DNA of 39,735 bases from Escherichia phage AV103, in sequence record OR352934.1; one strand, given 5' to 3'. Under the pieces are notes generated by a model. That model did not search any database, was not told the origin of the DNA, and saw nothing but the letters and a program-made list of their open reading frames with translations. Below are positions 2,786 to 39,090 of the stretch, piece by piece (positions within the stretch are counted from its first letter, which is position 1; every line of letters begins with the position of its first letter). The position numbers were made by a program, and so were the translations under genes.

Positions 2786-3225
2786 GTGTCCTCCTTATAA
2801 GAGTCCTTCCGTGGACTACACGTCTTTCCTTGATATGATTATTCCAGACCCTTCAACTCAGCCATGAGTTTCAGTAAGTCCTGCTCAATGTCCTTCTTAG
2901 TTCGCTTTTTGGTTTCCTCTGGTGCGTGGAATTTCTTACCGTCCCATGTACACCCTCTCCAGTTACCAGAGAACTCGAAGGAATCAGTCACAATAATGGT
3001 TCCTCCTTCTACTGGTACGTACATACCAGACACAGGCCCGTCGGTAGCCCACATAACGTCGCCGTTAGGTCCAATTCCAACCACCCATGTTTCTTGGCGC
3101 TCATCTAGTTCTTCCATCAAGGTGTACCAATCAACGTTATTGTGGTCACGAATCTCATAGATTGGTTTTCCAAAATAAAACCCTTCGGTCCACTTCCAGT
3201 TAGTAAATACTCTCATTGTCCCTCC

Positions 3226-4887
3226 TTATTGTGACGCAATGATTCTTTTTGTGCCATTATGGAAACCAAGCCATACTGGTCTTAAAAAGATACCAGCAAC
3301 ACCCCCATTACTAACGGTTGTACCTGTTTGAACATGTCCAGATGGCGCTATAATGTCGTGATAACCTCCACCGTATCGGTTCCACACTTGAGGACCTAGA
3401 TAGACATCCCCTATGAAATATCTTCGTATCCAATCATCTAGGTATCCGGAATCATACGCAATACCCCAAACTCTACCATTAGGGTCAAAAGAGCCATTCC
3501 GTACAACCACACGTCCACCATCGGCCCAAATCTCCCCAGGGACGTGGAAGTCTCCATTGGTATTGAACGACCAAAGTTTATCACCTGCCCCTTCGTCTTT
3601 CATATGTATGTGGAATGACGGATGCGCTCCATTCAGCAATGTACCGATAGACCAGCATCCTGCCCACCGTCCAGATTGGTAAGTTCGTTGCTTTATTATT
3701 GGGTGATATGAGCTTGTAGATTGTACACGAATCTGTTGGAAGAAAGGAGCTTTAGTGTTGTACTGGTCAGCGAAAGCGTGAGCTATGCGATCATCAGCAT
3801 CTGACTCTAACACACCGCCAGCTATTGTTAACTGATTAAGTCTAATCTGGTGACGATGTTGCTCAGTCTTGTCCGCTGCATACTCTATGAACCCTATACC
3901 GTCCGGTCGGTCAATAGCGAGGTCAGACTTAAGGAAGTCGCCTTCTTCCCAAAGACCCATACGGAACCTAAATGCGTGGTTAGTTTGGAGTCCGTATACG
4001 GGACCCCCAACCCAATAGCCCCCTCCTCTCCAGAATACAGTATCACCCTGAACGCTATCTACAGCACCAGCAAAAGCATTCATGTTGCCAAGTTTGTCTG
4101 CTTCCTGCTTCGCTCGGTCTGCTTGCTGTTTTGAAGAAGCCGCAGAATCCGCTGAGGCCGTAGCTGAGTTCCCAGCGTTTACCTCAGATTGGCGTGCAGC
4201 GGTAGCGGAGTTACCAGCAGACGTAGCGTATTGACCAGCGGTGTTCTTGAACTGTTCAGCCTCATTACGGAACCCATAAGCCTCATCACGCCACTGCTTC
4301 GTGTTAGCAGCATTAGTGCCAGACTCGGTCTTAAAGCCATCCGCTTGATTTCTGAAAGTCTCAGCCTCATTACGGAACTGCAGGGCCTCGTTACGCGCCT
4401 GCCATGAGCTTTGGTTCATGGTCTTAAGTTGACCAAGCGGAACAGCGTCACGGTCATCAACGGCGTTCGCTAGGTTCACGATACGACGACCACGGGCATC
4501 CAAGTGACCATCATTGTTGACACCAATAGTATCCGCAGTTAAGTCACGGGCTTCTTCCGCTACATGCATAGTCTGAATCTGAGCCACGTTAAGGTCGTAA
4601 GCACGCAGGATTGAACCATCCGTAAAGTCAACAAGACGGTCAGTCGTGGAGGTTACTCGGCGTAGCTCAATAGTAGTGTAACCATCCGCAGGTCCCCAAG
4701 ATTTGGTTAGCGAGATAGTAGTGCGCGTAGCAAAGCGATAATCTGTATTAAGTGTGAGTACCTTACGGTCAACACCAATGAGAGTTACCACTACGAACTT
4801 ACGGGCTAGATATTCAAACGGGATGTTAAAATCACGATTTGAACCATCTAACGGGTAAGTCAAAACGGTCTTAATTACGTTAGCCAT
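3226..4887 (-). CDS. 17: Tail fibre protein, 553 aa
   Basis: 553-aa ORF MANVIKTVLTYPLDGSNRDFNIPFEYLARKFVVVTLIGVDRKVL...; length equals T7 gp17; preceded by a T7-type promoter. Confidence 0.95.
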   Translation of the reverse strand: MANVIKTVLTYPLDGSNRDFNIPFEYLARKFVVVTLIGVDRKVLTLNTDYRFATRTTISLTKSWGPADGYTTIELRRVTSTTDRLVDFTDGSILRAYDLNVAQIQTMHVAEEARDLTADTIGVNNDGHLDARGRRIVNLANAVDDRDAVPLGQLKTMNQSSWQARNEALQFRNEAETFRNQADGFKTESGTNAANTKQWRDEAYGFRNEAEQFKNTAGQYATSAGNSATAARQSEVNAGNSATASADSAASSKQQADRAKQEADKLGNMNAFAGAVDSVQGDTVFWRGGGYWVGGPVYGLQTNHAFRFRMGLWEEGDFLKSDLAIDRPDGIGFIEYAADKTEQHRHQIRLNQLTIAGGVLESDADDRIAHAFADQYNTKAPFFQQIRVQSTSSYHPIIKQRTYQSGRWAGCWSIGTLLNGAHPSFHIHMKDEGAGDKLWSFNTNGDFHVPGEIWADGGRVVVRNGSFDPNGRVWGIAYDSGYLDDWIRRYFIGDVYLGPQVWNRYGGGYHDIIAPSGHVQTGTTVSNGGVAGIFLRPVWLGFHNGTKRIIASQ

Positions 4888-11192: not shown

Positions 11193-11783
11193 TTACCTCC
11201 CCGTCTTGGTTCCTTTAGCGGCAACTATAGGTGCCTTAGTTGTGGACTTAGAGTCGAACGCACCGGATGCATAAGCACTCGCAGCGGAAGACCCCATGAT
11301 AGCCAGTGGGTCCAGAACCATCTGTAGCTTACTCTTCTGCTTCTGTTCGCCCTTATAGATTTCTCTAATCTGGCTTGCAGCACCTTGAGTACCGCCAAGT
11401 TGCTGTGCGAAGATTGCTTGGTAGTCACGACGATAGTTCTCAGTTACCATATTGGCTTCCCGAATGAACTGTCCATCTGTGACTCGCTTAATGCGGTCCA
11501 TTGAGGAACCTTCAAGCATACTCTCTCCGATAGCCGCTCGGATAGACCCCATAGCTTGGACCTTCTGCATGTTCTGAGCGGTCAACTCAGAGGACGCTTC
11601 CTCAAGTTTACTTCGAGCTTGTAGCGATAGGTCAGCATTCTGGATGTTCGTCTGCTTCATAAGTTCAAAGGCTTGACGACGACCAGCAGCGGTCTGAGCG
11701 GCAATCATTTTGGCCTGAGTGTGCTGACCACTGATAGCCTGAGCGCCAGCTATAGCGATAGGAATTGCGGCTGCCCAACACAT
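11193..11783 (-). CDS. 14: Internal virion (core) protein B, 196 aa
   Basis: Start taken at internal ATG (MCWAAAIPIAIAG...) preceded by AGGAGG; gives 196 aa as in T7 gp14; the longer 221-aa ORF overlaps gene 13. Confidence 0.85.
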   Translation of the reverse strand: MCWAAAIPIAIAGAQAISGQHTQAKMIAAQTAAGRRQAFELMKQTNIQNADLSLQARSKLEEASSELTAQNMQKVQAMGSIRAAIGESMLEGSSMDRIKRVTDGQFIREANMVTENYRRDYQAIFAQQLGGTQGAASQIREIYKGEQKQKSKLQMVLDPLAIMGSSAASAYASGAFDSKSTTKAPIVAAKGTKTGR

Positions 11784-12284: not shown

Positions 12285-14675
12285 TTAAATACCGGAACTT
12301 CTCCGTAAGTAGTTACCTTCCCAGCCACACCCAATGATGTTCAGCGGGGTAGTCTCGTCAGACAAGATGGACACGGTATTGAACTTGGCGTTACCAACCA
12401 CAGGGAATCGGTATTGTCCTGTCCCTAAGTTCAATCTCCCAGCCCTCAGAGCGTTAGAGCCTAAGCGGGCACCAGCCATTGTGTACTTCCAGTTGGACGA
12501 TTGGTTCTCAACATAAATGTCGAACGTACCAGACTCCTCATAGTTAACCCACGCTCGGCGTAACTGCAAGCGACCAATGTCTTCCGTTGAGGTTGACCCA
12601 TCGTCGGCAGTCTGCTTGATGAGGAACTTAGAGAACTCATAGACGAAGTTAATGTTGAACCCAATGTACACCGTTCGTCCCTCTAAGTTACCTCTGAGTC
12701 TCAGCCAAGGGTCACTATGCCACCCCGCAGCAGGCTGCTCAAACACTGTTATCTTACCATCAGGTTCTAGTACAGTGATTTTGCCTCTCCCGAAGTTAGC
12801 ACCATAAATGGTTGGAAGATGAATAGAGGTAGTGAATGAGTCATCGTTGTATGTTCCTCTAGGAATCGTGTAGCGAACCTTCATATCCATAAAGGCACGA
12901 TATGGTTCACCTTGTAAGTCAATGGCATTCTTAGTAAAAGCTATTTTAGCTAGGAACGTATTGAACTCATTGCGAAGAATCACATACATAGTTGAGTTGA
13001 TACTCTGACACGCCAGAACCTGTACGTTTTCCCCAAAGTCCCAATGAGACCACGACTGTTGTCTCAACTCTTCGTTCAGGTACAGGAATTTGTAGATGAA
13101 GATTTTACTTGGGTCCCCATGAGATAGTACAGAACAGAAGTTTTCCGTACCACTACCGCAGATACTGAACACACCGTTAGGGATATAGTTAGGAACGTGT
13201 GCTGTAATGTCCTCAGCGTTCTTAACGGAACTTACGTCCTGCACAGCGTAGTACCTGTGGATGGACGTGAAGCTGGACCTTGGACTAGCAAAGTAGACAT
13301 TACGCCCAATGCCATACGGTCTCGCTCGGTCCTGTACGTCAAACTGAGTCGTTAGGTTCAACTCAACCGACTTAGACGTGAGAGTGCCAGAAGCTGTCAG
13401 GACGAATTGTGCCTCATCGGACCAGATTAGTAACTCTTCTGAGAACGGGACGGCGTACTTAAGGATTGCTATCCTGTTTGTACTAACAGCTACGTCTATA
13501 GGGTCATCGTCACTTAGGTTAGCGACTGACGCTGGGAAGAAGTTAAAATATTTTGCAGTACGGCTCAATATAATGTTCTCTCCGCTAAGGAATCCTAAAC
13601 GGTTACGGAAGAAGAAGACATCGTTAATCGTAGAGCCTACGAATGAAGGATACGGGTTAGTATCAGCATCACCGCACACCCTAGGGTTCCATGAGATGGT
13701 CTTGAACTCAAAGTTGCCGTCAGAGGCCCTGACTAGAGCGTGAGGCATCGTATCGTGCGTGTAGTGCAGCTTGGTGTTCCACCCAACAACTTCCTTCCAT
13801 ACCTTACGACTGGTATCATACTGAACGTAATACTGGTCAGCGGACTTTGAGGAATCTCCCACAATCTTAACCATATAGCCGTCTGGGGCGTTTGGTGGTA
13901 ACTTAGAGAACGACTGAGCGTAGTGGGTGACAGGACTAATTAGCTGGTCTGCATAACCATCCTCTGTCGATATGTTCCACACCTCACCACTGGCAGGTGC
14001 TATCACATGGATGAAACCTTGACCAACATTGAATGTCCACCCGTAGGGTCCTAGGTTGTTCCTGAGTTGATTAGCCAACTCGTTAGCCAGCCATTGAGCA
14101 TCAGTATTGTTGACGTGTTCTGGAGCGGACCCGTTAGGGATTGTGTACGATGCATATACTGCACCATTAATCAGCACCTTCAACGTTCTTCCATACTGAC
14201 CGCCTCGCACGTTAATCAGTGCGTCACCTTTATCCCGAAAGTTACCACCAGTTGAAATTTCGGTGGACTCGGTTACTGTGACGTTTCTGTTAACGACAAA
14301 CGTGTAGTCGGCAACTGTCACCATCCGAAGGTCGTTCCTTGGGTTAGCTGTCTGTACATATGCTGCCCCTGTAGGGAAACGCACTTGTTTCTCGTTACCA
14401 GCAAGGTCAAACACACGGATGGTACTTCCGGTAAACACTGCGTAGTACCGCTCATACTCGTCACGGTTTATCAAGTGAATTAAAGGCGCTTGTCCTAAGT
14501 CTCCACTTCCTCCGAGTGTCTTAAGGAAAACCAGAGGTGGACGCTTTTGGAGGCCCTCGGTCTCCGAAGACCAACCGTTAACTTGGCGTGACCCTTGGTC
14601 TGGATAACGAAGGATGTCAGGCTGTTGGCTGATACCACCCTTCAAGTTCTTGATTGATTGGCTAATGAGTGCCAT
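12285..14675 (-). CDS. 12: Tail tubular protein B, 796 aa
   Basis: 796-aa ORF MALISQSIKNLKGGISQQPD...; size and position match T7 gp12. Confidence 0.95.
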   Translation of the reverse strand: MALISQSIKNLKGGISQQPDILRYPDQGSRQVNGWSSETEGLQKRPPLVFLKTLGGSGDLGQAPLIHLINRDEYERYYAVFTGSTIRVFDLAGNEKQVRFPTGAAYVQTANPRNDLRMVTVADYTFVVNRNVTVTESTEISTGGNFRDKGDALINVRGGQYGRTLKVLINGAVYASYTIPNGSAPEHVNNTDAQWLANELANQLRNNLGPYGWTFNVGQGFIHVIAPASGEVWNISTEDGYADQLISPVTHYAQSFSKLPPNAPDGYMVKIVGDSSKSADQYYVQYDTSRKVWKEVVGWNTKLHYTHDTMPHALVRASDGNFEFKTISWNPRVCGDADTNPYPSFVGSTINDVFFFRNRLGFLSGENIILSRTAKYFNFFPASVANLSDDDPIDVAVSTNRIAILKYAVPFSEELLIWSDEAQFVLTASGTLTSKSVELNLTTQFDVQDRARPYGIGRNVYFASPRSSFTSIHRYYAVQDVSSVKNAEDITAHVPNYIPNGVFSICGSGTENFCSVLSHGDPSKIFIYKFLYLNEELRQQSWSHWDFGENVQVLACQSINSTMYVILRNEFNTFLAKIAFTKNAIDLQGEPYRAFMDMKVRYTIPRGTYNDDSFTTSIHLPTIYGANFGRGKITVLEPDGKITVFEQPAAGWHSDPWLRLRGNLEGRTVYIGFNINFVYEFSKFLIKQTADDGSTSTEDIGRLQLRRAWVNYEESGTFDIYVENQSSNWKYTMAGARLGSNALRAGRLNLGTGQYRFPVVGNAKFNTVSILSDETTPLNIIGCGWEGNYLRRSSGI

Positions 14676-15354: not shown

Positions 15355-16544
15355 TTATTGCTCAGCGGTGGCGGCAGCCAACTCAGCTTCCTTTCGGGCT
15401 TTGTTAGCAGCGCGGGTGCGTGCGGCCTTCTGTGCTGGCGTTAAGGTTTCTTCTGTTGAAGTAACACTCTCCTCTTCGGGACTAGCAGCGACCGTTGAGG
15501 CCACTCCCAGCATTACTTCCCCTTGAAAACCACTGCACCAGCAGCTTCTGGGCGCAGACCACCGTGGCCCATTGCATACTTAGCAATAATCTGGTCTGCT
15601 TGGAAGTTAGCACGGCGAGCGCGCTCCAGAGCCAAGTCACGCAGTTTAACAGTACCTACCGCAGAGCGGTGCATGAACAGGCCGATAACGTTGTCCTTAG
15701 CAACCTTGTCGTTACCACTCTTAGTGGCAGGGAAGGCGTGCTTCTGACCAGTAGTATCATCACGAGAGGTGCCAGCACCACCAGCGGTGAGGTGAGGAAC
15801 TTCTACAACCTCAAAGCCCATAACGTTGCGGATAGAACCCTTCTCAGGGTCAATCAGAGCAGCGTAGTTTGCTGCGTTCGGCATAAGTGCTGCCAGAATC
15901 GCAGAGTAGCTATCTGGGTCGCAGTAGAACACACGGTCAGCAGCCGGAACATAGTTCTTAGTCAGAGCCGCACGAGCCTTGGTCAGAGCCGCAATAATCT
16001 CCTTACCCAGCGCAACTTGGTCGGTAAGTGCCGCCTTGTCCTGAGTGGTCTCAATTACGGTAGCAGTGCCCAGACCTGCAATGTTCTCATCAGAGGCGCT
16101 CGCCAAGTTACACAGGCCAGCAATCTCAGCCAGAACCGCACCATCAGCAGCCATAGCCAGAGATTCACCCAACTGAGAGGTATACTCAGAGCGAACGTCA
16201 TAGTGGTTCATCGCGTCCTCAATATCGTAAATCAGAACGTCAGCCGTCAGTAGGCCATCAATGGTGATGGTCTTCTCGGTGTGTTTGATGTCTTTACGTT
16301 TATCATCGAGGTTCTCACCAGGAGACAAGTAAGCTGCCTGAGTGCGACCCAGTACAGGGAACTGAGCGGATTTACCGCTGGAGATGGAACGGACCATGTG
16401 GCGAGAAGTGGTCACAGAGGTACGAGCGAATGCAGTCAGAACTTCACCACCAAATACCTTCAAGAACAACGCCAGTTTATCAGAAGCGCTTGCACCTTTA
16501 CCTTGGTTAGTACCCAGTTGCTGTCCACCAGTCATAGTAGTCAT
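15355..16544 (-). CDS. 10B: Minor capsid protein 10B, made by -1 frameshift near the 3' end of 10A
   Basis: Sense strand has GGTTTTC close to the 10A stop; the -1 frame stays open for about 53 codons (...TLTPAQKAARTRAANKARKEAELAAATAEQ*), stopping at 15355-15357 just before Tphi. Confidence 0.6.
15513..16544 (-). CDS. 10A: Major capsid protein 10A, 343 aa
   Basis: 343-aa ORF MTTMTGGQQLGTNQGKG...; preceded by phi10 leader and SD AAGGAGA. Confidence 0.95.
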   Translation of the reverse strand: MTTMTGGQQLGTNQGKGASASDKLALFLKVFGGEVLTAFARTSVTTSRHMVRSISSGKSAQFPVLGRTQAAYLSPGENLDDKRKDIKHTEKTITIDGLLTADVLIYDIEDAMNHYDVRSEYTSQLGESLAMAADGAVLAEIAGLCNLASASDENIAGLGTATVIETTQDKAALTDQVALGKEIIAALTKARAALTKNYVPAADRVFYCDPDSYSAILAALMPNAANYAALIDPEKGSIRNVMGFEVVEVPHLTAGGAGTSRDDTTGQKHAFPATKSGNDKVAKDNVIGLFMHRSAVGTVKLRDLALERARRANFQADQIIAKYAMGHGGLRPEAAGAVVFKGK

Positions 16545-16602
16545 ATGTATGTCTCCTTCTTAAAGTTAAACAAGAATGATTTCTAGAGGGAAACCGTTGT
16601 GG

Positions 16603-16625
16603 TCTCCCTATAGTGAGTCGTATTA
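16603..16625 (-). promoter_or_regulatory. T7 RNAP promoter (phi10) with GGGAGACCACAACGGTTTCCC leader hairpin
   Basis: Reverse complement TAATACGACTCACTATAGGGAGACCACAACGGTTTCCCTCTAGAAAT...AAGGAGA...ATG. Confidence 0.95.
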
Positions 16626-16638
16626 ATTTAAGAGTCTA

Positions 16639-17562
16639 TCAGAAGTTCGAGTCGATTACTTTCTGTTCGACTTGACGACGATAATTGGCATCTGTGCGAT
16701 ACCGAGGGTCGCTCATAGCTTTAATCATCTCGCTACGGTCCGCAAAGCCTTCACGCTTGGTCGCCTGAGGTTTAGCCGGAATAGCACGATTAGTCACGCT
16801 ACGAGTTGGCTTACGACCGAACGCCTTAGCGCGAGACTCACCAGCCAAGTTGATGATAGCCTTAACGGTCGCTAAGTCACGATTGGTCAACGCATTGTCC
16901 AGTGACTGTGCAGCCTCAGGGTTGTGCGTCTCAAGGTGATTGTACAGTGCGTCAAAACGCTCACGACCGCCAGCGTACTCAATGACACTGTTTACGTACC
17001 GCTCCACCAGAGCCTCTTGACCACGAATGTATGAGTCAATGAAAGCCTTCGTGTAGCCAATTTCAGCCAGCTTAGCGTAGGACTCAGCGGACAACTCTTC
17101 GTTCTCCTCGTACTCACGCTGGATGGCCTCTATGGTCTCAACACTCATGCCACGCTCGGCAGCAATGTTAATCATCTCTTGGAAGCCCTCTTCGTGCTCG
17201 CCAAGTTGCTCAGAGGCGGCTACCAGTTCTTCTGGAGTCTCACCCAGCGGGGTAAACTCCTCGGAACCTTCGGTGTCATCAGCGCCTTCTTCACCAGTGT
17301 CCACATCGGTCGGCTCAGAGCCATCCCCAATGCGAACCTGAATGCGGCCTTCGTCATCCTCTTGACCGAATGGGTCAGAGTTGTCGTACAGGTCACGTTC
17401 TGTTTCCACTTCGTCGGACGCTAACTCGATTGCATCATCGCCATCACGGGCAGCAACATCAAGAGCCAGCATGTTCTGCTCATGTTCCTCAACGGAACCA
17501 CCAGACATCACAGCGGAGTTCACGCCAAAAGATGCATATACGTCTGCATTAGATTCAGCCAT
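16639..17562 (-). CDS. 9: Capsid assembly (scaffolding) protein, 307 aa
   Basis: 307-aa highly acidic ORF between portal and capsid genes; same length as T7 gp9. Confidence 0.95.
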   Translation of the reverse strand: MAESNADVYASFGVNSAVMSGGSVEEHEQNMLALDVAARDGDDAIELASDEVETERDLYDNSDPFGQEDDEGRIQVRIGDGSEPTDVDTGEEGADDTEGSEEFTPLGETPEELVAASEQLGEHEEGFQEMINIAAERGMSVETIEAIQREYEENEELSAESYAKLAEIGYTKAFIDSYIRGQEALVERYVNSVIEYAGGRERFDALYNHLETHNPEAAQSLDNALTNRDLATVKAIINLAGESRAKAFGRKPTRSVTNRAIPAKPQATKREGFADRSEMIKAMSDPRYRTDANYRRQVEQKVIDSNF

Positions 17563-19607: not shown

Positions 19608-20009
19608 TTATACCTCCTTAAAGTATACACGCATTGTCTCGCCTTCATGTTTACAGCGGGACACCCAATCGCAATCGTGGAGTTCTGCAAGGTACTTAAA
19701 GCGTTTCGCGAGGAATCGCTGTAAGCCCTTAGAGTCTGCCTCAGGATTAATAACAACTGACGTAACGTCCAGAATGTCTCCCTTGTGGTGAATGTCACAG
19801 CTTACGCACCACGCGAAGTACGCTACATGTTTTCCGGTAGAGTCCAGAATGTACTCTTCACGGCAACCAGACATGTCCATAACTTCGTCAACGTAGAGGC
19901 TGTAGCCCACAAAGTGTCCTTCGAATCCCTTAGGCAACCCAAGGTGTTCCACAGTCCACCGAATTGCACGGAAGCGACTCTTGGCCTCCACACATGTGAA
20001 CTCAGGCAT
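19608..20009 (-). CDS. 7: Gene 7 host-range protein, 133 aa
   Basis: 133-aa ORF between 6.7 and 7.3; same length as T7 gp7. Confidence 0.85.
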   Translation of the reverse strand: MPEFTCVEAKSRFRAIRWTVEHLGLPKGFEGHFVGYSLYVDEVMDMSGCREEYILDSTGKHVAYFAWCVSCDIHHKGDILDVTSVVINPEADSKGLQRFLAKRFKYLAELHDCDWVSRCKHEGETMRVYFKEV

Positions 20010-20275
20010 TACTTCTTACCTCCGAATGCGGACTTACGGATTGAAGATTTCATACGAGCTGAACCAGTACCACTGGCTTTAGACTTCGCTACGGAATCAT
20101 CGCGTTCGACCTTGAGGTCTTTGCGTCCAGACACTTCGGTGCCTTCGGTATCCGTCTCATCAGAAGACCCACCGAACTCTACGCTTGACACTTCTTTGGT
20201 CAGAGGCGCTGGCTCAACGGCTCGAATCTGATTGGTATCCATCTTCGGAACTTTAACTTTCGGTGAGAAACACAT
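20009..20275 (-). CDS. 6.7: Gene 6.7 virion protein, 88 aa
   Basis: Start at internal ATG (MCFSPKVKVPKMDTNQIRAVEPAPL...) with SD GGGAGGA; 88 aa as T7 gp6.7. Confidence 0.8.
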   Translation of the reverse strand: MCFSPKVKVPKMDTNQIRAVEPAPLTKEVSSVEFGGSSDETDTEGTEVSGRKDLKVERDDSVAKSKASGTGSARMKSSIRKSAFGGKK

Positions 20276-22307: not shown

Positions 22308-22463
22308 TCAGTGACATACGGCCCAGTTAGGACCCATCTTACCTTCGGTATCCAGAAGACACCGGAAGTTCCAGTGGTCTCCAACCCAGCGCATTGCTTC
22401 TTGTGCGGTCTCAATGACCACCTTAGCAATCTCTTCGGTACGGCAACCCACTTGAATCTCATC
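22308..22463 (-). CDS. 5: DNA polymerase exon 2 (C-terminal 51 aa)
   Basis: Frame translates DEIQVGCRTEEIAKVVIETAQEAMRWVGDHWNFRCLLDTEGKMGPNWAVCH*, the conserved polymerase C-terminus; continues exon 1 after the intron. Confidence 0.85.
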   Translation of the reverse strand, partial: DEIQVGCRTEEIAKVVIETAQEAMRWVGDHWNFRCLLDTEGKMGPNWAVCH

Positions 22464-23063
22464 CTTTCTGTATTCTCCTATTACTAGGAGTGTCGGACTA
22501 TATCATCAGCCTTTGAGTTGACTGTCTGGCGCTTCGGGTAACGAGGGAATCTCACCCTCGGCCCTACTCCTTTCGGATAGTCTCTACGCCTTCCACTCTC
22601 TAATCCACTTACAAGCGGCAGAGAACGTTACACCAAACTTCTCACCTAAGTGTGTCCCTGTACATCCAGTCTCAAACCAGTATTCCTTCGCGGACTCTTT
22701 ACGGTCAGCGTAGCGTTCCATGTTTGTCTTGACTGTATGCTCAGAACCTTCTAGTAACTGGAGGTGCTCTACGTTACAGCACGCCCTGTTCCTACACTTG
22801 TGGTCTACTTCATACCCTTCTGGTATATCCCCGTAGTGTTCCTTCCAGACTGTCCTGTGATACATTTCTAGTACACCGTTCGTCTTCTTTCGGAAATAAC
22901 CATCAGCATTAAGTTTGTGTGACGTAGGGATGATACAACCACTCTCTGTGGTCGCAAGGATTAACTTCTTGCCTCTCATATATCCTCCCTATGGCTTGGC
23001 TCGGTATTGCCCAGAAGGGTTTCACCGAGTTCACCAGATTTAATGTGCACAATGAGATAGTTT
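22464..23063 (-). mobile_element. Intervening sequence in the DNA polymerase gene, probable group I intron carrying an HNH endonuclease ORF (600 bp)
   Basis: Polymerase frame stops 7 codons after ...FAYMAWVH and resumes 600 nt downstream; exon 1 ends in U, intron ends in G; internal ORF has its own SD; about 200 nt of non-coding flank. Confidence 0.8.
22584..22979 (-). CDS. Intron-encoded HNH homing endonuclease, 131 aa
   Basis: HNH motif EVDHKCRNRACCNVEHLQL; SD GGGAGGATAT-ATG; lies wholly inside the interruption of gene 5. Confidence 0.85.
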   Translation of the reverse strand: MRGKKLILATTESGCIIPTSHKLNADGYFRKKTNGVLEMYHRTVWKEHYGDIPEGYEVDHKCRNRACCNVEHLQLLEGSEHTVKTNMERYADRKESAKEYWFETGCTGTHLGEKFGVTFSAACKWIREWKA

Positions 23064-25022
23064 ATGCACCCATGCCATGTACGCAAAGTCCCCATCCCAG
23101 CCATGCTTCAAGCCTTTCTCTACGAGCATCTCTTCGGTCTTGATAATCCACAGTTTGCAGATGAGAGCACCCGCAGATTGCAGTAGTGTATTCAAGGCAG
23201 CGTGAGGACTACGAACGTGTACCTTACGACCATCCAGACCTTTAATCCAGCGGCGTTTCCACTTGACTTGTTGCTCACCAGCTACCCATTGAGAGGACTC
23301 GACAAGTGTCTGTTGGATAGACTCACGGAGTGCTGCAATCGCTGGTGTGTTCTCAAGGAATTTCTTCTTGAGTTCCTTACCGCGTTCTTTACCAGCACCT
23401 ACAATCTGTCCAATCTTCTCATCACCAGCGCCATAAAGGAACCCATAGATGAACGTCTTGGCGTTATCACGGGTAGGCAGTTCGGCAGCTAGTTGGTTCT
23501 TAGTGTGGATGTCACCATGAAGAATCTCTCTAGCGTACTCACCGTTATCAAAGCGAGCCATGAAGTGGGCCAAACAGCGCAACTCAAGGCCGGATGCGTC
23601 GATACCTGCCTGAACCCAAGGCTTACCAGTTATCCCATCCAAATGGTGCTCAGCGCCAAAAGCAGCGCGACACTGCTCTCCATAAGGAGAACGTACACCC
23701 GGAATTTGTGCAAGGTTGGGGAACGCATGGGTCGCACGACCCGTAACTGCTCCATTAGGGTTAACAGAACCATGAATCTTACCATCCTCAGCAACGTAAC
23801 GAAGCCATGCCTTGTCTCCCTCAGCGGACTGTCCGATTCGCTTCTGAATCATCAAGTACTCTTTAATGAGGTCGATAGCGGCTTGCTTCTCAGGGTCATC
23901 TACACGCACTCCTTCGAGTACCTCATCGTCCACCACAGGAGCACCATTATCGGTGTACTTGGTCGGGACCCATCCAGCCTCTTGGAGTTTCTTCTGAATG
24001 TGGTCACGAGACGAAGGGTTAAACACAACGTGCTCAACTGGAGTATAAGGAGCACCAGCAACATACTCGCGGGTGTCCAGTTCGCAAGGCTCACGGCCTT
24101 CTCGCTGTGCCTTGTTCTTAGGCTTCTTAAAGATACCACCTACTTTAGGTATCTTAATGCGAGGGTATTTAGGCAGTGGCTTACCTGTCCGTGGATGGCA
24201 GAACATTTCGGTGCCACCTTTAGGCTGATACCACGAGCCGAACGTTTCGGTCAATTTACGGAGCAACTCAGAGCGTCTAGCAGCTAACTCTACGTACAAC
24301 TCTTCGATTGCTTTCGTGTCAAACGGGAACCCATTGCGCTCTTGCTTAGCGAGTAGCCATGCAGCACGATGCTCAATGTCAACGGCCTCAAGGGATTCTG
24401 ACCAGAACGTAGTGTATCCTACGTCCGTAAAGTCAATCTCAGGAGGGAAGTAATGTTTGTCAGAGAGTAGCTTCTCAAGGAGAGTTTTAGTGACCACAAC
24501 GTCCTGAACGTTATAGGCCATCATCTCTTCGTTGAAGTTCCACCACTCCATCCCGTCAACGTATTCTTCACCCTGCTCTTCAAGCATACGCTTAAAGTCG
24601 TCCTTGTATTCACCTTTCATCTCGCCTAAGCGATAGCCCCACGCCTCCAGAGCGTGAGACCCAAAGCGTTTCCCAGGCAACTTACCGGAACGCAGAAGAC
24701 CCATATCGGTGTCCTTGAGGTTAGAGTGAATCAAGCGTGACAGCACAAGTGTGTCAATACAGTTCTCACGAGGAATGTGGAACTCTCGGTTCAACTGCAA
24801 CTTAGCCAGCTTGGTTAACGCAGGGATGTCAAATTTAGTGAAGTTATGTCCTACGATGAGTCCTCCCTTTGCTACCTCAGCTTCTAATGCGTCAAGGTAT
24901 TTATTAAAGTCCACAGGGCGATACTTGTTGTATTCTCCAGTACTGTAGTCATAGATAACCGCGCAATGGAATTTAGTAGTGGTCTCAAGTAGACCGTTTG
25001 ATTCGATGTCTGAGACAATCAT
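23064..25022 (-). CDS. 5: DNA polymerase exon 1 (N-terminal 653 aa)
   Basis: [27 protein letters not shown]... 3'-5' exo and pol motifs; exon 1 + exon 2 = 704 aa, the T7 gp5 length. Confidence 0.9.
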
Positions 25023-25459
25023 TAGAGTTCTCCTTTAAGATACCTTATGGCATTCTCCAACCTATCTGTAGAATCGAAGAATTTACCTAAACCAATATTG
25101 CAGTGCCAGCATAATAGCCCACGAACTTTCAGAGTTAAATGGTCGTGGTCAATACAGGCTACCTTATGTCTCTCGGATGAGTGTGCCATTATAGCGTCTC
25201 CACATATCTTACACCTCCCTCCTTGCGAGTTCCATAATTCCTCATACTGCTCTACTGTCAGGCCATACTTCTTGATTTGAGATTTACGAGAACTCCACCT
25301 ATGGGCCTCTCGCTTCTCAGCATCATGCTTATGGTATCTCGCATTGTTATCTTTACGGACGCACTCTTTACACCAAGTTCTAAGACCGTCCTTCATGCGG
25401 GAAGCCTTACCGAACTCGGAGAGCGGCTTTCCGTTCCCACATTTAGAACAAATCTTCAT
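25022..25459 (-). CDS. HNH / endonuclease VII-family protein with N-terminal CxxC zinc finger, 145 aa (putative free-standing homing endonuclease)
   Basis: MKICSKCGNGKP...WCKEC... then CKICG...CIDHDHLTLKVRGLLCWHCNIGLG, resembling T4 endonuclease VII; SD GGAGGTGG; stop overlaps polymerase ATG. Confidence 0.75.
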   Translation of the reverse strand: MKICSKCGNGKPLSEFGKASRMKDGLRTWCKECVRKDNNARYHKHDAEKREAHRWSSRKSQIKKYGLTVEQYEELWNSQGGRCKICGDAIMAHSSERHKVACIDHDHLTLKVRGLLCWHCNIGLGKFFDSTDRLENAIRYLKGEL

Positions 25460-25462
25460 GCC

Positions 25463-25485
25463 ACCTCCTATAGTGAGTCGAATAG
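25463..25485 (-). promoter_or_regulatory. T7 RNAP promoter (phi4.7-like)
   Basis: Reverse complement CTATTCGACTCACTATAGGAGG directly upstream of the 145-aa HNH ORF. Confidence 0.7.
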
Positions 25486-29530: not shown

Positions 29531-29843
<313 letters not shown>

Positions 29844-29923
29844 ATTCAACCTCTATAGCCCAATACATTAAGCGAAGTAACGCGCCTACTCCAGCGCAAA
29901 TTAATCCGAAGTACAGAACATCG

Positions 29924-30151
29924 TTAAGCATAGCGGTTCACCATAACACAGTCATCAGAATACTCATACTCCTCTACCTTAATAATCAGACTAGGTGTCT
30001 TCTTATAAGCAAACGGTAGGAGGTCACTATCACAATACTCACTGTGTCCTAGCGAGAACATCAACATACCAATGCGCAGCGCCTTGTATGCACGATAAAA
30101 CCTGTGCGCTCTACGCTTCACCGATGCAGCTTGAAGTTCTTCACGCGTCAT
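29924..30151 (-). CDS. Hypothetical small protein, about 75 aa
   Basis: ORF with start overlapping the 3' end of gene 1.7; weak SD; no recognisable motif. Confidence 0.35.
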   Translation of the reverse strand: MTREELQAASVKRRAHRFYRAYKALRIGMLMFSLGHSEYCDSDLLPFAYKKTPSLIIKVEEYEYSDDCVMVNRYA

Positions 30152-32388: not shown

Positions 32389-32658
32389 CTTCCAGTGCTT
32401 CAAATCACTATGCACCTTGCGTAACCACTCGGTCTGTGCGTTGCAGCGCACATCTTCGTCATCGTGCTCGAACTTATTAGATGTTAACTCTACGCCATTC
32501 CGCAAGACCACTCGAAGAGTCTCTCCAGCTACCCATCGGCGCTGTGCATAGTCCTCACGTCGATAAGTCTCAGCGACCACATCAACATCATGGTCTTCTT
32601 TGAGGCGCTTGATAACATCCTTGTACGCTGCCAGATTGCCACTATACAGACGTCCCAT
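32386..32658 (-). CDS. 1.2: Gene 1.2 protein (host dGTPase inhibitor in T7), 90 aa
   Basis: Internal start MGRLYSGNLAA... as recalled for T7 gp1.2; ATG follows the gene 1.1 stop. Confidence 0.8.
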   Translation of the reverse strand: MGRLYSGNLAAYKDVIKRLKEDHDVDVVAETYRREDYAQRRWVAGETLRVVLRNGVELTSNKFEHDDEDVRCNAQTEWLRKVHSDLKHWK

Positions 32659-32976: not shown

Positions 32977-35628
32977 TTACGCGAACGCGAAGTCTGACTT
33001 AAGGATGTCTTGGAGATTCAAGTTACCTTTAGCCGGAAGTGCTGGCATTTTGTCCAATTGAGACTCATGCAACTGGTCAGCGAACTGGTCGTAGAAGTCA
33101 GCCAGTACATCACAAGACTCATAGGTGTCAACCATAGTTTCGCGCACAGCTTTGAACAGGTTGGCAGCGTCAGCAGGAATGGTCCCGAAGGAGTCGTGAA
33201 TCAATGCAAACGATTCGATTCCGTACTTCTCATGTGCCCACACTACAGTCTTACGCAGATGACTACCATCTTGGCTATGTACAAAGTTAGGAGCTATGCC
33301 GGACTCCTGCTTGTGCGCATCAATCTCGCTATCCTTGTTTGTGTTAATGGTTGGCTGTAGACGGAACTGACCGAGGAAAATCAGGTTCAAGCGAGTCTGA
33401 ATTGGCTTCTTGTATTCCTGCCACACAGGGAAGCCATCAGGAGTTACCCAGTGTACAGCGCAACGCTTGCGTAGAATCTCTCCAGTCTTCTTATCTTTGA
33501 CCTCAGCAGCCAGCAGCTTAGCAGCGGATTTAAGCCAGTTCATTGCTTCAACCGCAGCCACCACCGTGACACTCACAGCTTCCCAAATCAGTTTAGCCAT
33601 ATAACCAGCAGCCTGATTAGGTTGAGTGAACATCAGACCTTTACCGGAATCAATAGCTGGCTGAATGGTATCTTCCAGCACTTGTTGACGGAAGCCGAAC
33701 TCTTTGGACCCGTAAGCCAGCGTCATGACTGAACGCTTAGTCACGCTGCGAGTAACACCGTAAGCCAGCCATTGACCAGCCAGCGCCTTAGTGCCCAGTT
33801 TGACTTTCTCAGAGATTTCACCAGTGTTCTCATCGGTCACGGTAACTACTTCGTTGTCGGTCCCGTTGATTATGTCTTCTTGCAGAATCGCATTGACTTT
33901 CTTAGCAACAATCCCATAGATGTCCTGAACGGTTTCACTAGGCAGCAGGTTAACCGCACGACCACCTACCTCATCGCGGAGCATCGCAGAGAAGTGCTGA
34001 ATGCCGGAGCAAGACCCATCGAACGCCAGTGGAAGAGAGCAGTTGTAGCTAAGACCATGGTGCTGTACCCCAGCGTACTCAAAGCAGAACGCAAGGAAGC
34101 AGAACGGAGAATCTTGCTCAGCCCACCAAGTGTTCTCCAGTGGAGACTTAGCGCAAGCCATGATGTTATCGTGGTTGTCCTCAATGAACTTGATGCGCTC
34201 AGGGAACGGAACCTTATCGACACCCGCACAGTTTGCACCGTGGATTTTCAACCAGTAGTAACCTTCCTTGCCGATTGGTTTACCTTTAGCCAGCGTCAGC
34301 AGTCCTTTGGTCATATCGTTACCTTGCGGGTTGAACATTGACACAGCGTAAACACGACCGCGCCAGTCCATGTTGTAAGGGAACCAGATGGCCTTATGGT
34401 TAGCGAACTTATTGGCTTGCTCAAGCATGAACTCTAAGCTGATACGGCGAGACTTGCGAGCCTTATCCTTGCGGTACACAGCAGCAGCAGCACGTTTCCA
34501 TGCGGTGAGAGCCTCAGGATTCGTGTCGATGTCTTCCGGTTTCATCGGGAGTTCTTCACGTTCAATCGCTGGGATGTCCTCGACAGGGCAGTGCTTCCAC
34601 TTGGTGATTACGTTGGCGACCGCTAGGACTTTCTTGTTGATTTTCCATGCGGTGTTTTGCGCAATGTTAATCGCCTTGTACACCTCAGGCATGTAAACGT
34701 CTTCGTAGCGCATCAGTGCTTTCTTGCTGTGAGTACGTACCAGTGCCAGAGGACGGCGACCGTTAGCCCAATATCCACCACCAGTAATACCAGTCCACGG
34801 CTTAGGAGGAACTACGCAAGGCTGGAACATCGGAGAGATACCAGCCAGTGCACCAGCACGAGTAGCGATAGCCTCAGCGTATTCCGGTGTGAGTTCGATA
34901 GTCTCAGAGTCTTGCCCGACTACGCCAGCGTTTTGACGATGTAAGCTAACCATTCCGGTTGACTCAATGAGCATCTCAATGCAGCGCACACCTACGTGAA
35001 TGGAGTCTTCCTTGTGCCACGAAGACCACGCCTCGCCACCCAGTAGACCCTTAGAGAGCATGTCAGCTTCGACAACCTGCATGAATGCTTTCTTGTAGAC
35101 GTGCCCTACGCGCTTGTTAAGCTGTTCCTCAACGTTTTTCTTGAAGTGCTTAGCTTCAAGGTCACGGATTCGACCAAAGCGCGCCTCGTCCTCAATAGCT
35201 CGACCAATTGCACTTGCTACAGCCTGAACGGTTGTATTGTCTGCGCTAGTGAGGCAAGCCAGAGTTGTCTTAATGGTGATGTACGCTATCGCTTCCGGCT
35301 TGATTTCTTGCAGGAACTGGAAGGCTGTCGGGCGTTTGCCGCGCTTAGCTTTCACTTCCTCAAACCAATCGTTGATGCGTGCAATCATCTTAGGGAGCAG
35401 GGTAGTAATGAGAGGCTTGGCGGCAGCGTTATCCGCAACCTCACCAGCTTTAAGTTGACGCTCAAACATCTTGCGGAAGCGTGCTTCACCCATCTCGTAA
35501 GACTCATGCTCAAGGGCCAACTGCTCGCGAGCTAAACGCTCACCGTAATGGTCAGCCAGAGTGTTGAACGGGATAGCAGCCAGTTCGATATCAGAGAAGT
35601 CGTTCTTAGCGATGTTAATCGTGTTCAT
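32977..35628 (-). CDS. 1: T7-type single-subunit DNA-directed RNA polymerase, 883 aa
   Basis: 883-aa ORF MNTINIAKNDFSDIELAAIPFNTLADHYGERLAREQLALEHESYEMGEARFRKMFERQLKAGEVADNAA...; matches the promoter specificity of all 17 promoters. Confidence 0.97.
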   Translation of the reverse strand: MNTINIAKNDFSDIELAAIPFNTLADHYGERLAREQLALEHESYEMGEARFRKMFERQLKAGEVADNAAAKPLITTLLPKMIARINDWFEEVKAKRGKRPTAFQFLQEIKPEAIAYITIKTTLACLTSADNTTVQAVASAIGRAIEDEARFGRIRDLEAKHFKKNVEEQLNKRVGHVYKKAFMQVVEADMLSKGLLGGEAWSSWHKEDSIHVGVRCIEMLIESTGMVSLHRQNAGVVGQDSETIELTPEYAEAIATRAGALAGISPMFQPCVVPPKPWTGITGGGYWANGRRPLALVRTHSKKALMRYEDVYMPEVYKAINIAQNTAWKINKKVLAVANVITKWKHCPVEDIPAIEREELPMKPEDIDTNPEALTAWKRAAAAVYRKDKARKSRRISLEFMLEQANKFANHKAIWFPYNMDWRGRVYAVSMFNPQGNDMTKGLLTLAKGKPIGKEGYYWLKIHGANCAGVDKVPFPERIKFIEDNHDNIMACAKSPLENTWWAEQDSPFCFLAFCFEYAGVQHHGLSYNCSLPLAFDGSCSGIQHFSAMLRDEVGGRAVNLLPSETVQDIYGIVAKKVNAILQEDIINGTDNEVVTVTDENTGEISEKVKLGTKALAGQWLAYGVTRSVTKRSVMTLAYGSKEFGFRQQVLEDTIQPAIDSGKGLMFTQPNQAAGYMAKLIWEAVSVTVVAAVEAMNWLKSAAKLLAAEVKDKKTGEILRKRCAVHWVTPDGFPVWQEYKKPIQTRLNLIFLGQFRLQPTINTNKDSEIDAHKQESGIAPNFVHSQDGSHLRKTVVWAHEKYGIESFALIHDSFGTIPADAANLFKAVRETMVDTYESCDVLADFYDQFADQLHESQLDKMPALPAKGNLNLQDILKSDFAFA

Positions 35629-35639
35629 TTAGTGCCTCT

Positions 35640-35700
35640 TCCGGTTAGTAAATCGTATCTATTCAGGCCACCCTCAGTCAGATGACCTGTAAGATAAGAC
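35640..35700 (-). promoter_or_regulatory. Possible RNase III site (R1-like) in the 0.7 to gene 1 spacer
   Basis: Imperfect inverted repeat CAGGTCATCTGACTGAGGGTGGCCTG; weak. Confidence 0.3.
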
Positions 35701-35702
35701 TA

Positions 35703-37087: not shown

Positions 37088-37135
37088 GATAATCATAAAG
37101 GCCACTCGCTAGGAGCGACCTTGAGCCTATCACTT
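37088..37135 (-). promoter_or_regulatory. RNase III hairpin (R0.5-like)
   Basis: AATCATAAAGGCCACTCGCTAGGAGCGACCTTGAG. Confidence 0.55.
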
Positions 37136-37267
37136 GCTACCGTACATCGCTTTGCGTGCTCGATATGTCTGTGCTAATTGTGCCATGCAGTACCCGAAAG
37201 AAGCACCATAAGCCATCGCTACGCGGTACGTCTGCATCATCTCTTTTGTTAGACCATATTTGACCAT
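37130..37267 (-). CDS. Gene 0.4-like small protein, 45 aa
   Basis: MVKYGLTKEMMQTYRVAMAYGASFGYCMAQLAQTYRARKAMYGSK; ATG 2 nt after the ocr stop with SD GGAGGA. Confidence 0.5.
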   Translation of the reverse strand: MVKYGLTKEMMQTYRVAMAYGASFGYCMAQLAQTYRARKAMYGSK

Positions 37268-37269
37268 GA

Positions 37270-37647
37270 TTATAAATCCTCCTCCCCCTCTTCGCAGTCT
37301 CCCTCTTCCTCTTCCTCTGCGACTTCCTCAAGGTACTCGTTCAGCAAGTCCTCAGCAACTTCCCAGAGGTCAATCGTGAGTTGCTCATAGATGCGAGCTT
37401 GCAGGATGCGAATTGTGTCCGTGGTGTCTGGCATCAGACCGGCATCCTCGAACGCACGATAGATACCGTCGCTTGCCATTACGCTAAAGACCTCAGAGTA
37501 GTGACGCGGAACTACACTATCGGCAGCCTCATGAACAGCATACGATAGATAATCAGGGTCACGGATAGCATCATGATGGATGATTTCTTTCAGTATTGCA
37601 TAAGCGCGGTCGAAAACGTTGCTGTAAGTCATGTTAGACATAGCCAT
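37270..37647 (-). CDS. 0.3: Ocr, DNA-mimic inhibitor of type I restriction-modification, 125 aa
   Basis: [16 protein letters not shown]...[40 protein letters not shown] plus polyacidic tail. Confidence 0.9.
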
Positions 37648-37679: not shown

Positions 37680-37726
37680 CTAATCATAAAGGCCACGCAT
37701 CGTGCATGACCTTGAGTTTAACACTT
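37680..37726 (-). promoter_or_regulatory. RNase III hairpin upstream of ocr
   Basis: ATCATAAAGGCCACGCATCGTGCATGACCTTGAG; near-duplicate of the hairpin upstream of the SAMase gene. Confidence 0.55.
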
Positions 37727-38183
37727 ATTGCACTTGCCAGCGGCGACCGAACTCATCAATCGTGAAGCAGCCTTGCAGCGGTGCGCCTTTAGGCACTTCT
37801 TGGAAACTACCTTGCAGACGTTCGGCCTTATACCCATCGATACCTTTAGCGTACACCAGACCAGCCGTGTGAGTCTGTGATTTGTATACCAGTACGCAGT
37901 CTTGCTCCCACTCATTGCAAGCTAAGCGAGCGACCTGTAAGACCTGTTCTTTGTCCTTGCAGCGTACACGAACCGTCTTTTCCTCAGTCGGTGCACTTGC
38001 GATTGCCTCACGATAGCATCCGGTCAAATCGGTTGACTCAACGGAGCCATAAAGACCCGGTGCGGCACGTAAGGTGCTAACCATGTGGCGGTGTCTGCTC
38101 ATATTCACCTCATCGTCGAGGTTGGAACGGAAAGCTGACACCAGTACATAGAAGACGTTAGCAGGCTCTTTAGTGAAAATCAT
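37725..38183 (-). CDS. S-adenosyl-L-methionine hydrolase/lyase (T3-type SAMase), 152 aa
   Basis: 152-aa ORF MIFTKEPANVFYVLVSAFRSNLDDEVNMSRHRHMVSTLRAAPGLYGS... as I recall for the T3 SAMase; SD GAGGT. Confidence 0.8.
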   Translation of the reverse strand: MIFTKEPANVFYVLVSAFRSNLDDEVNMSRHRHMVSTLRAAPGLYGSVESTDLTGCYREAIASAPTEEKTVRVRCKDKEQVLQVARLACNEWEQDCVLVYKSQTHTAGLVYAKGIDGYKAERLQGSFQEVPKGAPLQGCFTIDEFGRRWQVQ

Positions 38184-38717: not shown

Positions 38718-38930
38718 AAGACGATGGATGAAGATTATCTCTTTATAGGTAACAACAAGGCGTCTATAGGATAGGCTTTAGGATGGTCTTTAGGCTGGTC
38801 TTTAGAAGATACTTTAAGATGGGGATTGACTCATGGTGTCTTTAGGTGTAGTCTTTAGGTTGTAGACGGTAGGAATGACTTTAGGAGGTGACTTTAGGAG
38901 GATACTTTAGGAGGCTGTAACAGATAGGGA
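38718..38930. repeat. Left-end array of degenerate CCTAAAG-type heptamer repeats
   Basis: Plus strand shows about 10 copies of CTTTAGG / CTTTAAG / CTTTAGA at irregular 10-25 bp spacing. Confidence 0.75.
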
Positions 38931-39090
38931 CACAGAGAGACACTCAAGGTAACACTCAAAGGTAAACCATCGGGTCATCCCAACCTTAAGTAACCCTCAA
39001 GGTCAACCTTCGGTTGACTTTAGGTGATTGGCTGGGCTTTAGGGACCCCCCCCCCCCTATGGGGGAACTTTGGGTCCGTACACTGTGAGA
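38931..39090. repeat. Direct terminal repeat (single collapsed copy); physical genome end at about 39090
   Basis: Reverse complement begins TCTCACAGTGTACGGACCCAAAGTTCCCCCATAGGGG...CCTAAAGCCCAGCCAATCACCTAAAGTCAACC, matching the T7 left terminus; 160-bp extent assumed by analogy. Confidence 0.6.

Follow-up and report, generated by a model that had tools for sequence, protein, structure and literature searches.

In the genome of Escherichia phage AV103 (sequence record OR352934.1; the window, i.e., the whole stretch analyzed, is 39,735 nucleotides (nt) long), an open reading frame (ORF) of 145 codons lies on the minus strand in the slot that gene 4.7 occupies in phage T7, directly before gene 5, which encodes the DNA polymerase. 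Judged from its sequence, this ORF is, with high probability, a gene for a free-standing homing endonuclease in the endonuclease VII (EndoVII)-motif, or F-CphI, family, whose product would cut the polymerase gene of phages that lack it (non-carriers). The locus bears the genomic signature of homing, i.e., sporadic presence at a single locus, co-converted flanks, and decay remnants. F-CphI, encoded by cyanophage S-PM2, is a characterized free-standing homing endonuclease and the founder of the "DHHRN" family (Zeng et al., 2009; Fang et al., 2018, PMC6083498).

The ORF encodes an EndoVII-motif nuclease

The predicted protein (MKICSKCGNG...YLKGEL, followed by the stop codon) comprises an N-terminal zinc ribbon, a helical linker after it (residues 31-64), and a C-terminal catalytic domain (coordinates of all features are given in Table 1). 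An earlier note on this DNA, made without database searches, had described a 145-residue ORF combining a CxxC..CxxC zinc finger at the N-terminus with an EndoVII core, and had asked for a Pfam search. Both motifs were present, and the search returned a match to PF02945 (Endonuclease_7) over residues 62-142, covering profile positions 5-81 of 82, with a score of 73.8 bits (E = 1.1e-20; curated cut-off, 23.6 bits). The same Pfam search gave no HNH_3 (PF13392) match for this ORF, that domain being found only in the ORF of the gene 5 intron considered below.

The catalytic domain contains C83/C86, D104-H105-D106-H107, R113, and C117/C120-N121, spaced as in the EndoVII/"DHHRN" family pattern Cx2-4C...D-H-D-H...R...Cx2C-N. 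Residues equivalent to C83, C86, H105, H107, R113, C117, C120, and N121 were found to be essential for both F-CphI and T4 EndoVII (PMC6083498). In 40 homologues, C30, C33, C83, C86, H105, H107, R113, C117, C120, and N121 were invariant, and C4 and C7 were conserved in at least 90%. When the sequence was compared with those of solved structures, only Hpy99I and T4 EndoVII gave significant matches, with active sites aligning through D104-H105-D106-H107, R113, and C117xxC120-N121. The C-terminal domain fits a beta-beta-alpha-metal fold, while the secondary structure predicted for the N-terminal module, which is presumed to be a DNA-binding domain, consists of beta-hairpins plus helices.

Among the PHROG families, the full-length protein matched phrog_2633 ("endonuclease VII") with E = 1.3e-41, and the N-terminal region alone matched other PHROG nuclease families. 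In BLASTP comparisons the similarity to F-CphI took in the zinc finger (35% identity, residues 2-142 against 10-139, E = 3e-22). Proteins with the EndoVII motif have been divided into a resolvase clade, in which the motif is N-terminal, and an endonuclease clade, in which it is C-terminal and whose podovirus members occur in phages that also have T7 endonuclease I (PMC6083498). Gene 3 of AV103 encodes a T7 endonuclease I (PF05367, Phage_endo_I, E = 1.8e-81). By the criteria of Fang et al. (2018; PMC6083498), a C-terminal motif in a phage with this enzyme would place the ORF among the homing endonucleases.

The nuclease gene occupies the slot of gene 4.7 behind a resident promoter

The AV103 genome is T7-like (Teseptimavirus), and the record, which is circularly permuted, runs in reverse-complement orientation to the T7 map. 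The list of ORFs offered an alternative, in-frame ATG upstream of the nuclease gene, at 25585, which would give a protein of 187 residues and an ORF crossing the end of gene 4.5 and the promoter. We take 25459 to be the true start, because all homologues begin MK[IV]CSKCG.

An exact match to the T7 RNA polymerase promoter core, CGACTCACTATAGG, is present at 25467-25480 on the minus strand; the genome holds 14 such exact sites, all on the minus strand, where 0.01 would be expected by chance. The promoter sequence, AATACTATTCGACTCACTATAGGAG, is identical to the annotated phi4.7 promoter of T7. Transcription is predicted to start at 25468, 9 nt before the nuclease ATG, with GGAGGUGGC as the leader up to the AUG. 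At the other end of the ORF, the nuclease stop overlaps the gene 5 start, as the earlier note had stated: TAATG at 25024..25020 combines the nuclease TAA (25024-25022) with the gene 5 ATG (25022-25020).

DNA identity with T7 ends directly past GGAG, positions +1 to +4 of the promoter, and resumes at the gene 5 ribosome-binding site. Because T7 similarity continues through the promoter and stops where the foreign cassette starts, the promoter is a resident backbone element that the nuclease gene uses, and not a part of the cassette; it may also supply the upstream homology for recombination. In Salmonella phage RN5i1 the nuclease gene lies directly after gene 4.7 and has no promoter of its own. 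The proposal that the gene has its own phi4.7-like promoter was thus correct in that an exact phi4.7 promoter adjoins it, but not in assigning that promoter to the nuclease gene. The base composition of the ORF is weakly atypical, with a G+C content of 44.3% against 48.6% for the genome (8th percentile).

Whether the ORF might be an orthologue of T7 gp4.7 had been left undecided. BLASTP of the nuclease against T7 gp4.7 gave no significant alignment; T7 gp4.7 and ORF027 of RN5i1 both fall into phrog_4023, whereas the nuclease falls into phrog_2633; and RN5i1 has a gp4.7 homologue and then a 95%-identical copy of the nuclease, side by side. Together these results rule out orthology, and in AV103 the nuclease gene has replaced gene 4.7 between the phi4.7 promoter and the start of gene 5.

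The gene is patchily distributed, moves with part of gene 5, and decays

With tblastn, nuclease homologues were found in 1,909 phage records. Close homologues (79-98% identity) occur in Teseptimavirus, Berlinvirus, and Przondovirus, where they always abut the polymerase start. In Kayfunavirus, Aeromonas phage T7-Ah, and Pifdecavirus, this position holds homologues of 48-52% identity. Among sampled IMG/VR relatives, 3 of 80 had the gene or a remnant. The nuclease gene is patchily spread over at least four T7-like genera, always adjoining the polymerase gene.

In AV103, the nuclease ORF and approximately the first 228 nt of gene 5 form a foreign, co-conversion-like patch of ~670 bp, with its left edge inside the promoter and its right edge inside gene 5. 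Compared with T7, this patch is 60-76% identical and both flanks are 93-100% identical; compared with Aeromonas phage KFSA9, the patch is 95-100% identical and the flanks are 65-92% identical. Because the patch resembles the divergent KFSA9 while the surrounding backbone resembles T7, the nuclease gene must have come in together with roughly the first 230 nt of gene 5, as a single block.

Similar tracts were found in other genera. In the Przondovirus pair IL33 (carrier) and PRA33 (non-carrier, with gp4.7), the backbones are 93-100% identical, and the diverged segment consists of the nuclease gene and ~190 nt of gene 5. In the Kayfunavirus pair EcSW4 (carrier) and Pipis (non-carrier), the backbones are at least 97% identical, and the nuclease gene and ~306 nt of gene 5 have diverged. 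In Berlinvirus, the change is limited to two small islands in gene 5. Yersinia phage WX1 has the AV103 backbone (95-100% identity) and the intron, yet carries another allele of the patch (63-88% identity in DNA; 86% in amino acids), with divergence ending just past gene 5 nt ~187. This would imply either an independent acquisition or a swap of one nuclease allele for another at the locus.

Several relatives retain the gene in decayed form. Salmonella phage Vi06 (2458-2621; compare AV103 25143..25022) has the last ~120 nt of the nuclease ORF left upstream of gene 5, with a deletion junction that reads AATAC-CATTTAACTC. The deletion looks like the product of recombination via a microhomology, ATTTAACTC, common to the Vi06-type promoter and to the nuclease codons for H-L-T-L, and it would have destroyed the promoter. 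The Vi06-type promoter is intact in CHRF_10027, which keeps ~43 nt of the nuclease gene. In Salmonella phage PC127 (1480-1501), all that remains of the nuclease gene is its final 16 nt, AAGGAGAACTCTAATG. The near-repeats TTTAAGGAG and TTAAAGGAG (3985-4000 and 4420-4440), two Shine-Dalgarno sites, flank the gene in RN5i1, and recombination between them would yield exactly the junction seen in PC127. A different change is found in IMGVR_UViG_3300033068_000001 (~5290-5605, minus strand), where the helical linker (residues ~37-82) is deleted in frame, which leaves a 104-residue nuclease with the zinc finger fused directly to the CKIC...DHCH core, adjoining a polymerase allele of the carrier type.

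The surviving tail in Vi06, CHRF_10027, and PC127 always contains the gene 5 ribosome-binding site, and in AV103 the final codons of the nuclease harbor the Shine-Dalgarno sequence of gene 5, as would be expected if the AV103 gene were itself an inactive relic, retained for the ribosome-binding site or for translational coupling in its 3' end. However, the AV103 ORF is intact and none of its catalytic or zinc ligands is missing, whereas the truly decayed relatives show deletions. In addition, the ratio of non-synonymous to synonymous substitution rates (dN/dS) between nuclease alleles is 0.04-0.05 at a dS of ~0.5, so intact copies are under strong purifying selection. A relic is highly improbable on these grounds.

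Purifying selection shows that the protein is used, and it would also fit a working phage enzyme, i.e., a resolvase or repair enzyme like T4 EndoVII, or a non-homing nuclease that breaks down the DNA of the host or of competitors. The Pfam family is named for the T4 resolvase, and relatives in GenBank are labeled "endonuclease VII" or "recombination endonuclease VII." However, the similarity to T4 EndoVII spans only T4 residues 9-69 of 157, the C-terminal dimerization part is absent, and the order of domains is reversed; given also that AV103 already has the T7 resolvase, endonuclease I, a role in resolving Holliday junctions is unlikely. The gene is moreover missing from T7 and from most relatives (77 of the 80 sampled), persists elsewhere as remnants, and moves together with a flanking tract. 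A working enzyme of either kind is therefore very unlikely, and a homing endonuclease remains our preferred reading.

The predicted target lies in the Exo II region of gene 5

Codons 57-65 of gene 5 read V-G-H-N-[F/I]-T-K-[F/Y]-D in all 15 of the carriers or remnant-carriers examined (AV103, KFSA9, PDP351P2, WX1, RN5i1, IL33, RAD13, NAN33P2, Rappa3, 71Y, HZJ31, MC04, the 104-residue variant, Vi06, and CHRF_10027). In non-carriers they read V-F-H-N-G-H-K-Y-D or close variants (F-H-N-G-T-K, F-H-N-G-H-N, M-H-N-G-T-K) in 78 of 80. Fisher's exact test gave p ~1e-15 for the association, a value inflated by shared ancestry. The non-carrier core, TTCCACAACGGTCACAAGTA (nt 172-191), is near-invariant in 68 unique sequences from several genera. 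In T7 gp5 this region is Exo II, a motif of the proofreading domain with residues N60, Y64, and D65. The carrier allele changes F58G, G61F/I, and H62T, so that Phe and Gly are swapped, and keeps N60, F/Y64, and D65. We predict that the carrier allele of gene 5 nt 168-191 is the resistant form of the nuclease target, and that the enzyme would cut the Exo II-coding site at or near these positions.

The strongest single result on the target comes from RN5i1. When this phage was compared with non-carrier Berlinvirus-like genomes, gene 5 nt 49-344 had 15 mismatches, of which 11 fell in nt 168-186 (permutation test over nt 49-900, p<=1e-4). This island matches the AV103 allele.

The sequence G-H-N-[F/I]-T-K-[F/Y]-D was also found in the N-termini of distant family A polymerases (33-37% identity) encoded by unrelated viral contigs (IMG/VR loci L116, L119, L102, L105, L115, L117, and L120), so the carrier-type allele is a naturally viable Exo II variant and not an oddity.

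A homing gene might instead have its target at the junction of genes 4.7 and 5, or in gene 4.7, where the insertion itself would destroy the site and confer immunity, the Exo II polymorphism then being hitch-hiking or independently maintained. In AV103 and IL33 the nuclease gene replaces gene 4.7 exactly, from the promoter to the gene 5 ribosome-binding site; the second variable island of RN5i1, gene 5 nt 1-48, adjoins the insertion; and two non-carrier phages have the G-H-N-F/I-T-K allele. All of this would suit a target at the junction. However, RN5i1 keeps gene 4.7 alongside the nuclease gene, and between the insertion and its nt 168-186 island, which has the AV103 allele, lie ~120 nt identical to the backbone, whereas the nt 1-48 island varies from carrier to carrier. 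The divergent tracts of WX1 and IL33 end just past the Exo II site, and the standard allele was found in no carrier examined. We consider a target at the junction or in gene 4.7 unlikely.

Several further points weigh against homing with a target in the Exo II region, beyond the junction alternative and the nt 1-48 island. Cleavage, specificity, and homing have all been deduced from sequence. The 15 carriers represent some four to six independent lineages, so kinship inflates the association of allele and nuclease. PC127 and IMG/VR locus L095 have the carrier allele and no nuclease gene; we interpret them as genomes that may have lost the nuclease after the allele was fixed, and simple linkage would predict the same. 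The idea that the carrier allele is perfectly diagnostic of the nuclease was rejected on account of these two. Finally, the Exo II regions next to distant homologues (EcSW4, T7-Ah, and PSV6) read otherwise, F-H-N-G-I-R or L-H-N-G-V-N. Because the polymerases of T7-Ah and PSV6, beside homologues of 48-52% identity, read F-H-N-G-I-R-Y-D, immunity changes, if there are any, would not be universal across the distant homologues.

With these points in mind, we put forward a fuller proposal tentatively, as one that is quite possible but falls somewhat short of probable: that Exo II DNA is the recognized target; that immunity requires a compensated recoding of F-H-N-G-H-K to G-H-N-F/I-T-K; that a selfish nuclease has thereby created, and maintains, two mutually exclusive versions of an active site in at least three genera; and that gene 5 is bracketed by two independent drives, the second being the intron nuclease, described below, at motif C.

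On our preferred reading, homing would proceed as follows. In a mixed infection, the nuclease would be made as a class II (middle) gene product and would cut the polymerase gene of a co-infecting non-carrier at or near gene 5 nt 168-191 (...GTG TTC CAC AAC GGT CAC AAG TA...). The break would be resected and then repaired from the carrier genome, with homology provided upstream by the conserved promoter and gene 4.5, and downstream by gene 5. Repair would copy the nuclease gene and all of the sequence between it and the cut, leaving the nuclease gene in place of gene 4.7 and co-converting the 5' end of gene 5. Protection of the carrier from its own enzyme would come from the variant allele V-G-H-N-F/I-T-K, in which Exo II residues N60, F/Y64, and D65 are kept.

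The gene 5 intron appears to be an independent element

In AV103, gene 5 is interrupted between H653 and D654. The interruption matched the group I intron model RF00028 over its full length with 36.1 bits (E = 1.6e-7) in a permissive search, a score below the gathering score of 50, and an Rfam search at the gathering threshold detected no intron. We call it a group I intron because this sub-threshold match coincides with an exact gap of 600 nt in the T7 alignment. It contains an HNH_3 ORF of 131 codons, so that, as the earlier note had noticed, the same polymerase gene also hosts an intron-encoded HNH protein, and two putative homing endonucleases are associated with one essential gene. The free-standing nuclease showed no similarity to the intron HNH_3 ORF, and kinship between the two was rejected. 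They belong to different families, and their distributions among phages are independent of each other.

The earlier note had also been reminded of collaborative homing and intron formation. Collaborative homing requires an intron lacking an ORF and a shared target (PMC3984707), and F-CphI cuts the intron insertion site of intron-less psbA (PMC6083498; reviewed in PMC3984707). In such an arrangement, which is also that of T3 F-TslI, polymerase genes without the intron would be cut by the AV103 nuclease at the intron insertion site, and the intron would so be mobilized, as might be suspected from the behavior of F-CphI, the closest characterized homologue, next to psbA (PMC6083498), and from the presence in AV103 of both a free-standing nuclease gene and a gene 5 intron. 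However, the intron has its own HNH_3 endonuclease ORF. In KFSA9, IL33, RN5i1, and several Klebsiella phages, the nuclease gene accompanies an uninterrupted polymerase gene, so that these phages would cut themselves. It is the 5' end of gene 5 that the conversion tracts cover, and the predicted nuclease target is ~1.8 kb from the intron insertion site, where the exon flanks are 98% identical to T7. A collaborative pair is accordingly extremely improbable. The intron appears to be a separate mobile element, so that two independent selfish elements would bracket the polymerase gene; cooperation between them is not supported.

Comparison with known systems

The AV103 nuclease shares with F-CphI the N-terminal CxxC..CxxC, the C-terminal Cx2C-DHDH-R-Cx2C-N core, and the spacing within it, i.e., from D/H +8 to R and +8 to N. 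Both are encoded by free-standing genes adjoining a conserved gene that is essential or important. They differ in that the F-CphI gene lies downstream of psbA, whereas the AV103 gene lies upstream of that for DNA polymerase; in that the predicted target of the AV103 enzyme is the Exo II region, unrelated to the gene 5 intron; and in that its immunity would depend on substitutions that change amino acids, and not on an intron. To our knowledge, F-CphI is so far the only characterized enzyme of the EndoVII-motif homing family. A homologue in Synechococcus phage S-H34 was considered as an F-CphI orthologue beside psbA and was rejected, so the comparison was made with F-CphI of S-PM2.

The nearest relatives are the "endonuclease VII" genes of Studiervirinae (KFSA9, RN5i1, WX1, IL33/BIS33/Rappa3, and others), which share 79-98% protein identity with the AV103 gene, abut or overlap the gene 5 start, and accompany the carrier Exo II allele, but are known as database annotations. 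WX1 also resembles AV103 in having the gene 5 intron, and RN5i1 differs in that the nuclease gene has been inserted after gene 4.7 and has not replaced it. In the GenBank record of WX1 (OP168920), product names seem to be shifted by one gene, the polymerase exon being called "endonuclease" and gp4.5 "endonuclease VII"; database names at this locus are therefore unreliable.

More distantly, the intron ORF of Yersinia phage Berlin has a catalytic domain 43% identical over residues 62-141, but lies ~1.65 kb into gene 5 and has another N-terminal half. Proteins from the gene 13.5 slot in phages like phiYeO3-12 and in Klebsiella phages are 44-45% identical over their full length, but their genes lie between those for internal virion proteins. 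Fang et al. regard both the Berlin intron ORF and the gene 13.5 ORFs as homing endonucleases, and in 2018 they anticipated that podovirus EndoVII-motif genes would be homing endonucleases (PMC6083498). The two structural matches differ in function: T4 EndoVII (gp49) is a junction resolvase with an N-terminal motif and a dimerization domain that the AV103 nuclease lacks, and Hpy99I is a restriction enzyme that has a methylase as its partner.

HNH homing endonucleases that target gene 5 in the T7 group, F-TslI of T3 and I-TslI of phiI/W31, are said to have been described by Bonocora and Shub in 2004 and 2009. They resemble the present case in having gene 5 of T7-like phages as target, and the HNH_3 ORF of the AV103 intron is of this kind. 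The free-standing nuclease differs from them in belonging to another family, in lying on the opposite side of gene 5, and in its predicted target. A literature search found no paper on the nuclease upstream of gene 5 as a homing element, or on its target, although one may still have been published.

Other features of the genome

The T7 genes annotated or suspected to be of HNH type, 2.8, 3.8, 5.3, and 7.7, are all cleanly absent from AV103. The junctions are at ~28735/28756, 27762/27797, 22305/22306, and 19269/19275, against T7 9861-10277, 11214-11585, 16471-16832, and 19844-20239. AV103 has instead two elements that T7 lacks, i.e., the nuclease gene that fills the slot of gene 4.7 and an intron containing an HNH ORF, and the sets of mobile nucleases therefore differ fully between two phages that are ~92% identical.

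A 1.2-kb segment, 2833..4055, corresponds to the distal part of tail fiber gene 17 (T7 35456-36296) and has no detectable similarity to T7 DNA; it is presumably a swapped host-range module. Four shorter segments of 160-460 nt each in the early or middle region that gave no alignment with T7 DNA are 37719..38180, 37135..37297, 32404..32618, and 29740..30148, around genes 0.3-0.6, 1.2, and 1.8/2. A ~165-nt stretch, 38926..39090, aligns with blocks from both the right (39131-39937) and the left (1-927) end of T7. The record therefore spans a single copy of the terminal repeat, in a circularly permuted or concatemer-junction form.

Table 1. Features at the gene 5 locus of AV103 (positions in the window)
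Feature	Positions	Strand	Basis
Nuclease ORF, free-standing, 145 amino acids plus stop, in the T7 gene 4.7 slot; EndoVII/F-CphI ("DHHRN") family	25022..25459	minus	
Zinc-ribbon module CxxC...CxxC, N-terminal, residues 1-35 (C4, C7, C30, C33)	25355..25459	minus	Conservation, predicted secondary structure
Catalytic EndoVII domain, residues 62-142	25034..25276	minus	Pfam match, active-site alignment, conservation
T7 RNA polymerase promoter, orthologue of T7 phi4.7 (-17..+6; +1 at 25468)	25463..25485	minus	Exact core match and T7 identity
Gene 5 Shine-Dalgarno sequence AAGGAG, within the final nuclease codons	25030..25035	minus	Sequence
Foreign patch (co-conversion-like), nuclease ORF with the initial ~228 nt of gene 5	24795..25464	minus	Identity profile
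Predicted resistant target allele, gene 5 nt 168-191, codons 57-64, GTA GGA CAT AAC TTC ACT AAA (V-G-H-N-F-T-K)	24832..24855	minus	Carrier-linked allele
Gene 5 (DNA polymerase) exon 1, codons 1-653	23064..25022	minus	T7 gene 5 alignment, ORF list
Group I intron, 600 nt, between H653 and D654 of gene 5	22464..23063	minus	T7 alignment gap, RF00028
Intron ORF, 131 amino acids, HNH_3 (PF13392, E = 6.7e-17)	22584..22979	minus	Pfam
Gene 5 exon 2, codons 654-704 plus stop	22308..22463	minus	93% identity to T7 nt 16312-16470

Implications

For AV103, the content of the gene 4.7 slot is settled as a mobile nuclease and not an orthologue of gp4.7. F-CphI-like homing genes are ordinary phage elements, whose relatives already stand in GenBank under the label "endonuclease VII"; what appears to be new here is the anatomy of the cassette, the replicated conversion tracts, the series of decay products, and the prediction of a specific target. 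In T7, the predicted cut site would fall at about genome position 14,520-14,545, in gene 5, and if that site is right the enzyme would represent a new specificity among nucleases with long targets.

With the predicted site confirmed, the locus would also clearly illustrate how a selfish element can force an essential replication enzyme to change amino acids within a catalytic motif. The mosaic boundaries around gene 5 in T7-like, therapeutically used phages of Klebsiella, Salmonella, and Yersinia would become easier to explain. If the fuller proposal is true, the two independent drives could, in mixed infections, carry gene 5 as a whole into competing phages.

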